Sequence record: NC_048071.1
DNA: 40,060 bases
DNA from: Escherichia phage IMM-002
Strand: one strand, 5' to 3'
Part shown: positions 12,100 through 13,803 of the stretch, piece after piece
Position numbering within the stretch: position 1 is the stretch's first letter
How the letters are laid out: each line of letters opens with the position of its first letter
Notes under the pieces: generated by a model
Told to the model about the DNA's origin: nothing
Database searches by the model: none
Seen by the model: the letters and a program-made list of their open reading frames with translations, nothing else
Translations under genes and position numbers: made by a program

Positions 12100-13803
12100 A
12101 TGTCATATGAAGACCAAGAGCAGGACGATAGCGTCTTCCTCTACCACACCGAGTGTCCAGACTGCGGGTCTTCGGATGCCAATGGTGTTTACTCAGACGG
12201 GCATATGTACTGCTTTGCGTGTGACCCGTCAGTCGCTTGGAAGAAGGGCGATATGGAATTGACCGAAGGTTACACACCTTCAGGAGGCAAGAAGCAAGTG
12301 AGCAACCTGTTAACGTGGGGTGAGAACTCAGGACGTTATGTCCCACTCCCTGCTCGTGGACTATCGGCTGACATCTGCAAGAAGTACAGCTACTGGGTAG
12401 GCATGATGCAGGGTAAGATGGTCCAGATTGCGGACTACTACGACAGGTCCGGGACCAAGGTAGGACAGAAGGTCCGAGACGCTGACAAGAACTTCACGGC
12501 TATCGGTAGCGTCAAGAATGACTTACTGTTCGGCTCTCAGCTCTGGTCAGGCGGAAAGAAGATTGTCATCACCGAAGGCGAGATTGACTGTCTGTCAGTC
12601 GCTCAGGTGCAGGAAGGCAAGTACCCGGTTGTCTCTCTTCCGCTAGGCGCGAAGTCTGCGAAGAAAACACTGGCAGCTAACCTTGAGTACCTCGACCAGT
12701 TCGAAGAGATTATCCTGATGTTCGACATGGACGAGCCGGGGCGAGAGGCTGTAGAGCAAGGTGCTCCGGTCCTCCCTGCTGGTAAAGTCAAGGTCGCATT
12801 CATCAATGGGTATAAAGACGCCAACGCTGCACTTCAGGCCAAGGACTTCAGGGCGATTCAGGATGCAATCTGGAACGCTGTACCTTTCGTCCCGGCTGGG
12901 GTGGTTAGCGCCAAGTCTCTGAAGGACAGGACCCGCGAGGCAATGCTGAAGGCTGAGACTGAAGGTCTCCTCTTCTCGTCTTGCAAAACACTTAACGCGA
13001 TGACCCTCGGTGCGCGAGCTGGTGAGCTTATCATGGTGACTTCAGGGTCAGGCATGGGTAAGTCCACCTTCGTCCGTCAGCTCCTCTTAGAGTGGGGCAG
13101 AATCGGGAAGCGTGTGGGTATGGCGATGCTGGAGGAAGCAGTCGAAGAGACTGTTCAGGACCTTATGGGTCTGGACAATAACGTCAGGCTGCGTCAGTGT
13201 GCCGACCTGAAGGAAGCAATCCTGAAGGATGGACGGTTCGACGAATGGTATGACAAGCTGTTCAACGACGATAAGTTCCACCTATACGATTCATTCGCTG
13301 AGTCGGAAGAAGACACGCTGTTCGCTAAGCTGGCCTACATGGTTGACGGTCTGGACTGCGATGTTATTCTGCTGGACCACATCTCAATCGTGGTGTCTGG
13401 CATGGAAGATAACTCAGATGAGCGTAAGACCATCGACCGCATCATGACCCGTCTCAAGAAGTTTGCGAAGACGAAGGGTGTGGTCGTCGTGGTCATCTGC
13501 CACCTGAAGAACCCGGAGAAAGGTAAGTCACATGAAGAAGGTCGTCCAGTTAGTATCACTGACCTGCGTGGGTCTGGTGCTTTACGTCAGCTATCTGATA
13601 CCATCATTGCCTTGGAGAGAAATCAGCAAGGTGATACTCCTAACGTTGTTCAGCTCCGTTTGCTTAAGTGTCGCTTTACTGGCGATACAGGCATTGCGGG
13701 ACATCTTGAATACAACAAGCTCACTGGCTGGCTCGAACCGATTAGCGCACCTAGCGGAGGCGGAGAGGAAGATAGCAGCTCGTGGGAAAACCAAGACTTC
13801 TAA
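12100..13803 (+). CDS. 4: DNA primase/helicase
   Basis: 567 aa; Cys4 zinc ribbon (CPDCGSSD...CFACD), TOPRIM ([26 protein letters not shown]), Walker [52 protein letters not shown]. Confidence 0.97.

Follow-up and report, generated by a model that had tools for sequence, protein, structure and literature searches.

A conserved internal Shine-Dalgarno sequence and a candidate GTG start for the helicase-only gene 4 protein of a K1F-like phage

The window analyzed here, the whole 40,060-bp stretch of DNA from Escherichia phage IMM-002 (NC_048071.1), is a complete Kayfunavirus (K1F-like) genome and is identical to the whole of the IMG/VR entry IMGVR_UViG_2974592685_000001. The gene 4 region shows 95-96% nucleotide identity to Shigella phage SFP21A, Dickeya phage Monomax and Escherichia phage Pisces, and approximately 85% identity to phage K1F; the phage is therefore a member of Kayfunavirus, a K1F-like relative of T7. 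Gene 4A (12100..13803, on the plus strand, as are all the features of the gene 4 region described below) encodes the full-length primase-helicase, a protein of 567 amino acids and 62.5 kDa. Three Pfam domains, PF21268 (T7 primase N-terminal fold, E=4e-31), PF13155 (Toprim_2) and PF03796 (DnaB_C), are all detected above the curated cut-offs, and a T7-type primase RNA-polymerase domain, consisting of the N-terminal α+β fold and Toprim, is followed by a DnaB/RecA-type helicase domain in the same polypeptide. The protein is 63% identical to T7 gp4 over 543 amino acids (BLASTP), it matches T7 gp4 structures in the PDB such as 6n7i (E=1e-230), and the crystallized 56-kDa gp4B of T7 (PDB 1q57) matches residues 69-564. 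Given the Pfam domains, the level of identity and the matches to T7 gp4 structures, we identify the gene 4 product by sequence as the ortholog of the T7 primase-helicase. At the N-terminus, Cys19, Cys22, Cys38 and Cys41 (CxxC...CxxC; 12154..12222) are aligned with Cys17, 20, 36 and 39 of the T7 zinc-binding domain and make up a Cys4 zinc ribbon. All four of these cysteines are lost in any isoform that begins at codon 52 or codon 67, the two candidate internal starts considered here.

The full-length gp4A is preceded by a Shine-Dalgarno (SD) sequence, TAAGGAG (12087..12093), located 6 nt before ATG 12100. Its SD and spacing score is -7.49 in a simplified re-implementation of an RBS-Calculator-type model, which is not a validated predictor and combines the pairing of the upstream 20 nt with the 16S 3' end and a published spacing penalty; the score was computed for every in-frame ATG, GTG and TTG. 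About 55 nt upstream of gene 4 lies a phage RNA-polymerase promoter (12027..12048) that differs at one position from the promoter preceding 4A in the annotation of phage CR44b. A search of the window with the CR44b promoter defined a family, ACTATCAC[C/T]NTAGGNN, with 10 sites compared to 0.47 expected by chance (6930, 8624, 9712, 12032, 18012, 20831, 21787, 26243, 33533 and 39311, all on the plus strand). None of these sites is inside gene 4, so an internal promoter producing a 4B-only transcript was discarded; the site at 12027..12048 is the sole promoter-like sequence near the gene and there is none between the 4A start and either 4B candidate, which implies that all forms of gp4 would be translated from one mRNA.

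Two open reading frames overlap gene 4. The first, in the +1 frame (12107..12262, 51 amino acids, from the list of open reading frames), is a positional analog of gene 4.1 of T7 and T3, and the +1 frame is open across the region coding for the zinc ribbon in all 26 Kayfunavirus loci as well as in T7 and T3. The arrangement of the stop codons differs: in T7 and T3, the TGA of gene 4.1 overlaps the 4B ATG (ATGA), whereas here the first +1 stop, TGA at 12260-12262, is 5 nt past ATG52, and the next one (12299-12301) overlaps GTG67 as GTGA. The second (13532..13855, 107 amino acids) runs in a different frame across the 3' end of gene 4 and corresponds in position to gp4.2 as annotated in K1F and T7.

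In T7, gene 4 gives rise to two proteins, gp4A, a 63 kDa primase-helicase, and gp4B, a 56 kDa helicase, the latter through internal initiation at Met64 (PMC1616965). In the linker that follows the zinc-binding domain of the protein studied here, the codons for Ser61, Gly62 (GGA) and Gly63 contain an internal SD sequence, AGGAGG (12282..12287), and 10 nt after the GGAGG there is an in-frame GTG (Val67, 12298..12300) which is aligned with T7 Thr65, one codon past Met64 (BLASTP). The sequence-only reading, which had pointed to an in-frame ATG at 12253 as the possible gp4B start, overlooked this pair, the AGGAGG of which is approximately 30 nt beyond that ATG. Initiation at the GTG would produce a predicted helicase-only gp4B (12298..13803) of 501 amino acids and 55.3 kDa, with the N-terminus (f)Met-SNLLTWGENSGR.

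The score of GTG 12298, -6.87, equals that of the T3 4B start, is close to that of the 4A start and falls within the range of true gene starts; it ranks third among the 528 internal in-frame NTG codons of the genome, and one of the two codons that outrank it, TTG 17863, is no more than 20 nt from the end of its reading frame. Opening of the initiation region is computed to cost 11.3 kcal/mol at GTG67, compared to 13.2 at ATG52, 13.4 at the T7 4B start and 14.4 at the T3 4B start. Initiation at GTG is weaker than at ATG, and the 10-nt spacing is suboptimal. An in-frame start follows 4-5 of the 32 internal GGAGG sequences in the window, so that such a combination is no great rarity within the genome, and the case for the site therefore rests on conservation rather than on the motif alone. 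Other arrangements of this kind include GGAGG, 5 nt and ATG 39092 (39082-39094; score -7.0) in the reading frame 37481..39211, 120 nt before its end; GGAGG, 11 nt and ATG 17386 (17370-17388) in 17017..17883; and GGAGG, 9 nt and GTG 34993 (34979-34995) in 33592..36390. These may represent additional internal starts or matches that arose by chance.

In a codon alignment of 85 related loci that span T7, T3, Przondovirus, Kayfunavirus, Apdecimavirus, Morganella phage MP2, Yersinia phage AP10 and others, GGAGG followed after 4-10 nt by an in-frame ATG or GTG is present at the aligned position in every locus, although the protein sequence of the linker is poorly conserved. The spacing falls into two classes, 7 nt as in T7, and 10 nt as in T3, Przondovirus and Kayfunavirus. 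GTG replaces ATG at the gp4B site in the 26 Kayfunavirus loci, in MP2 and in AP10, and in a second, more distant sample, close relatives with an identical SD sequence differ in which of the two codons they carry (contig L145 compared to L159 and L169, and L108 and L111 compared to L110). Thus, MP2, AP10 and the environmental contigs L145, L108 and L111 resemble the phage studied here in having GGAGG or AAGGAG(G) and an in-frame GTG at the homologous position of the linker; they differ in the spacing, which is mostly 7 nt, in having no annotated 4B and in the absence of an alternative upstream Met, so that in MP2 and AP10 the GTG is the only candidate start.

The orthologous protein of T7 has the same domain order, with an internal GGAGG within the Pro-Ser-Gly-Gly codons of the linker that follows the zinc-binding domain and an in-frame start within one codon of the aligned position, and the predicted product here would likewise have no zinc ribbon. 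The differences are the GTG in place of ATG, the spacing of 10 rather than 7 nt after the GGAGG, the presence of Gln66 at the Met64 position, the upstream in-frame Met52, which is absent from T7, and the status of gp4B, which in the present phage is a prediction from sequence. In T3 (NP_523316; Met63, annotated as 'in-frame internal initiation'), the geometry of AGGAGG and 10 nt, and the score, are identical to those found here; the T3 start, however, is ATG and not GTG.

The site also appears to be under selection at the nucleotide level within Kayfunavirus. Among 25 distinct gene 4 sequences of this genus, with pairwise nucleotide identity of 80-97%, Gly62 is always encoded by GGA, the rarest Gly codon in the genome (11%, and 5 of the 60 first codons of Gly-Gly pairs), and only 5 of the 45 columns with an invariant Gly are invariant at the codon level; similarly, Val67 is always GTG, with only 6 of the 35 Val columns being codon-invariant. 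Synonymous entropy reaches its minimum for gene 4 in the 12-codon windows that start at codons 61-67, and for codons 61-72 the value is 0.24 compared to the gene mean of 0.64 (permutation p=0.004, which is approximate given that the test ignores phylogeny and recombination). By contrast, the synonymous diversity of codons 46-57, which surround ATG52, ranks at the 83rd percentile, and Lys49, Gly50 and Asp51 each show synonymous variation.

The low synonymous diversity at codons 61-72 could reflect another overlapping element. The two overlapping reading frames were considered as the cause and rejected. Codons 4-53, under the 12107..12262 frame, show no synonymous constraint (0.66 compared to 0.644 overall), and this frame is probably not protein-coding. 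Synonymous diversity is not reduced in codons 478-567 either (0.83), so that there is no sign of dual-coding constraint under the 13532..13855 frame. Further dips in synonymous diversity, which almost match the depth of that at codons 61-72, are found at codons 383-395 (about 13246-13285), 128-131, 194-199 and 238-240. T7 carries the promoter phi4c within gene 4; the promoter search gave no match within the gene 4 studied here.

Taken together, the SD score of the GTG, the conservation of the AGGAGG across the subfamily and the synonymous constraint lead us to favor GTG 12298 over ATG 12253. We propose that a short, helicase-only form of gp4 is probably made by this phage, as it is in T7, and that it starts at GTG 12298, a placement to which we assign a probability of roughly 0.6. 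Under this proposal, a single mRNA initiated at the promoter at 12027-12048 would direct the synthesis of two gene 4 proteins. Ribosomes that bind TAAGGAG would start at ATG 12100 and produce gp4A, with the zinc-binding domain, the primase and the helicase, whereas other ribosomes would bind independently to the internal AGGAGG, within the Ser-Gly-Gly codons of the linker, and would initiate 10 nt further on at GTG 12298, with Val67 read as fMet, to yield the 501-residue gp4B. Because this product would not contain the zinc ribbon, it is expected to be a helicase without template-directed primase activity, like the gp4B of T7. The GTG 12298 site would then be the homolog of the Met64 start of T7 and the Met63 start of T3, with the start codon changed to GTG, and this change, together with the 10-nt spacing, would probably lower the 4B:4A ratio relative to T7.

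The foremost alternative is that no helicase-only isoform is made at all. The AGGAGG and the GTG would, in that case, be a weakened relic, or would be kept for some other reason, such as the Gly-Gly of the linker, ribosome pausing or a feature of the local RNA, and Met52 would be a mere residue at the end of the zinc-binding domain. The change from ATG to GTG and the long spacing do weaken the site, many of the more distant environmental homologs of gp4 have no SD sequence and start in the linker, and in T7, gp4B is reportedly dispensable for growth when gp4A is present. A relic, however, would be expected to decay, whereas the rare GGA and the GTG are invariant in all 25 Kayfunavirus genes and lie in the 12 codons that are the most synonymously constrained in gene 4. 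Constraint on a Gly-Gly pair in the protein cannot fix one particular synonymous codon, and GTG variants recur in several lineages with the SD sequence intact. We consider the complete absence of the isoform in this phage unlikely.

A natural case that bears on this alternative is Citrobacter phage CR8 (Caroctavirus, NC_023548), the nearest outgroup, which is a singleton in IMG/VR as well as in GenBank. CR8 retains the sequence AWKKGTME with a Met homologous to Met52, but its canonical site is lost, with GGAGG changed to GGAAG and GTG to GCT, and among the sampled Studiervirinae genomes it is the only one without a canonical internal GGAGG and start in codons 40-80 of gene 4. In our scoring model, the annotated 4B start of CR8, Met50, has no usable SD sequence, and no internal start of CR8 has any. 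The upstream Met could be the working start in the CR8 branch; simple loss of the isoform is equally likely, given the dispensability of gp4B in T7. CR8 is possibly a natural T7-like phage without gp4B.

Another alternative takes up the candidate of the sequence-only reading, with gp4B starting from ATG 12253 alone. Several observations on which that proposal was based are borne out: the ATG at 12253-12255 is in the gene 4 frame as codon 52; it is preceded by AGAAGGG (12242-12248) and 4 nt, CGAT; the position of T7 Met64 is occupied by Gln66 and not by a Met (BLASTP, ungapped N-terminus, offset 2); and the derivation of the shorter T7 gp4B from an internal Met agrees with the Met64 start in the literature (PMC1616965) and in GenBank. 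The product of this candidate (12242..12255 for the motif and the start codon) would be 516 amino acids long, with a mass of 56.9 kDa. The sequence-only reading expected that, compared to T7, a smaller part of the zinc-ribbon region would be left in such an isoform, but the relationship is the reverse: Met52 is 14 codons upstream of the equivalent of T7 Met64, so that more of the region after the zinc ribbon would be kept. Met52 itself is aligned with T7 Lys50 (BLASTP), away from the position of the T7 start.

In this scheme, initiation would depend on the weak AGAAGGG or on re-initiation after the TGA that ends the +1 reading frame. In its favor, no start codon is better than ATG, every one of the 26 Kayfunavirus loci has Met52, and the corresponding Met persists in CR8, which lost the canonical SD sequence and start; moreover, the end of the +1 frame just past the ATG resembles the ATGA overlap of 4.1 with 4B in T7 and T3, and the same start is annotated as putative 4B, at Met51/52, in K1F (CAJ29366), SH4 (ANS53189), CLB_P1 (AGD81050) and CR44b (CDM21548). 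Against this, the SD and spacing score of the ATG is -0.79 kcal/mol, a value that is low because only AGG pairs at an acceptable spacing and that is equaled or bettered by 25% of the ATGs located internally and in frame within the long reading frames of the genome (249 in total), and the homologous site scores 0 in 21 of the 26 Kayfunavirus loci. The purine run is a consequence of the Lys-Lys-Gly codons and lies only 2-4 nt from the ATG, which is too close; in the K1F subgroup, for instance, AAGGAG is only 2 nt away. Thus, no strong SD sequence at a workable spacing precedes ATG 12253. The free synonymous variation around the codon and the higher opening cost compared to GTG67 also count against it, and none of the other genera in the 85-locus alignment has a start at the equivalent position. 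The +1 frame does not show coding constraint, and translational coupling of ATG52 to its stop is a weak possibility. The GenBank annotations are explicitly putative and inconsistent, as illustrated by the SH3 table, in which 22B is placed at codon 101 (PMC4925675). Hence, the general idea of an internal helicase-only start is supported, with a conserved internal ribosome-binding site in the linker, whereas ATG 12253 as that start, with an SD sequence at the level of chance, is not supported by the sequence comparisons, and its exclusive use appears quite improbable.

The use of both internal starts, with three gp4 species of 567, 516 and 501 amino acids, is highly improbable: both codons are invariant in Kayfunavirus and are located in the linker past the zinc cysteines, and the annotators of CR44b listed both, but the chance-level SD sequence and free synonymous variation at ATG52 weigh against this possibility, and there is no precedent in T7 or T3, each with one annotated internal start.

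Other in-frame codons were also evaluated as starts and set aside. TTG54 has a good SD sequence in the K1F subgroup only and is CTG or TTT in some genomes. Met102, Met103 and Met107, which correspond to the choice made for '22B' of SH3 (PMC4925675), have weak SD sequences and very high opening energies of 20-22 kcal/mol.

With respect to the database annotation, the preferred start at GTG 12298 differs from that in the Kayfunavirus 4B entries of GenBank, which are placed at Met51/52, and agrees with a remark in the CR44b entry, where an 'alternative start codon Val at position 16' is mentioned, which is the GTG favored here. The Met51/52 proposal being already known from GenBank, the present result is mainly a correction of annotation, according to which the gp4B entries of K1F-like phages probably carry 15 extra N-terminal residues; the known mechanism of gp4A and gp4B is left unchanged. 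Within the collection of papers searched, none was found to mention both gp4B and Kayfunavirus. Because K1F serves in engineered phage work directed against E. coli K1, knowledge of the actual products of its gene 4 would be of some practical use.

More generally, the ratio of 4A to 4B sets the number of zinc-binding domains and primase-competent subunits in each replicative hexamer, and a repeated replacement of ATG by GTG downstream of a conserved SD sequence would point to differences in the tuning of this ratio from one T7-like phage to another. In this broader scenario, Kayfunavirus and several other T7-like lineages would have independently exchanged the gp4B ATG for GTG while the GGAGG was kept under selection, the swap, together with the 7- or 10-nt spacing, would tune the proportion of helicase-only to primase-helicase subunits in the hexamer, and the Met51/52 entries in GenBank would have the wrong N-terminus. 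We put this forward tentatively, as a scenario that is plausible although somewhat short of probable.

The 4B annotation is inconsistent among the Kayfunavirus records, most of which annotate no 4B. Multiple GenBank entries of the type 'primase/helicase (x2-x4)' were considered as possible 4B annotations, and the records checked are not isoform annotations: in Enterobacter phages 03_vB_Eclo_IJM and vB_Ecl_MII_004, gene 4 is split into fragments, probably by frameshift errors, and in Baskent_phicoli_1, gene 4 is intact and has no 4B entry. Finally, the records of Staphylococcus phage MBBL139 and Enterococcus phage EFA-1 contain sequences 88-90% identical to the Kayfunavirus gene 4 described here, and the host labels of these two records look doubtful given this level of identity to an enterobacterial Kayfunavirus gene.
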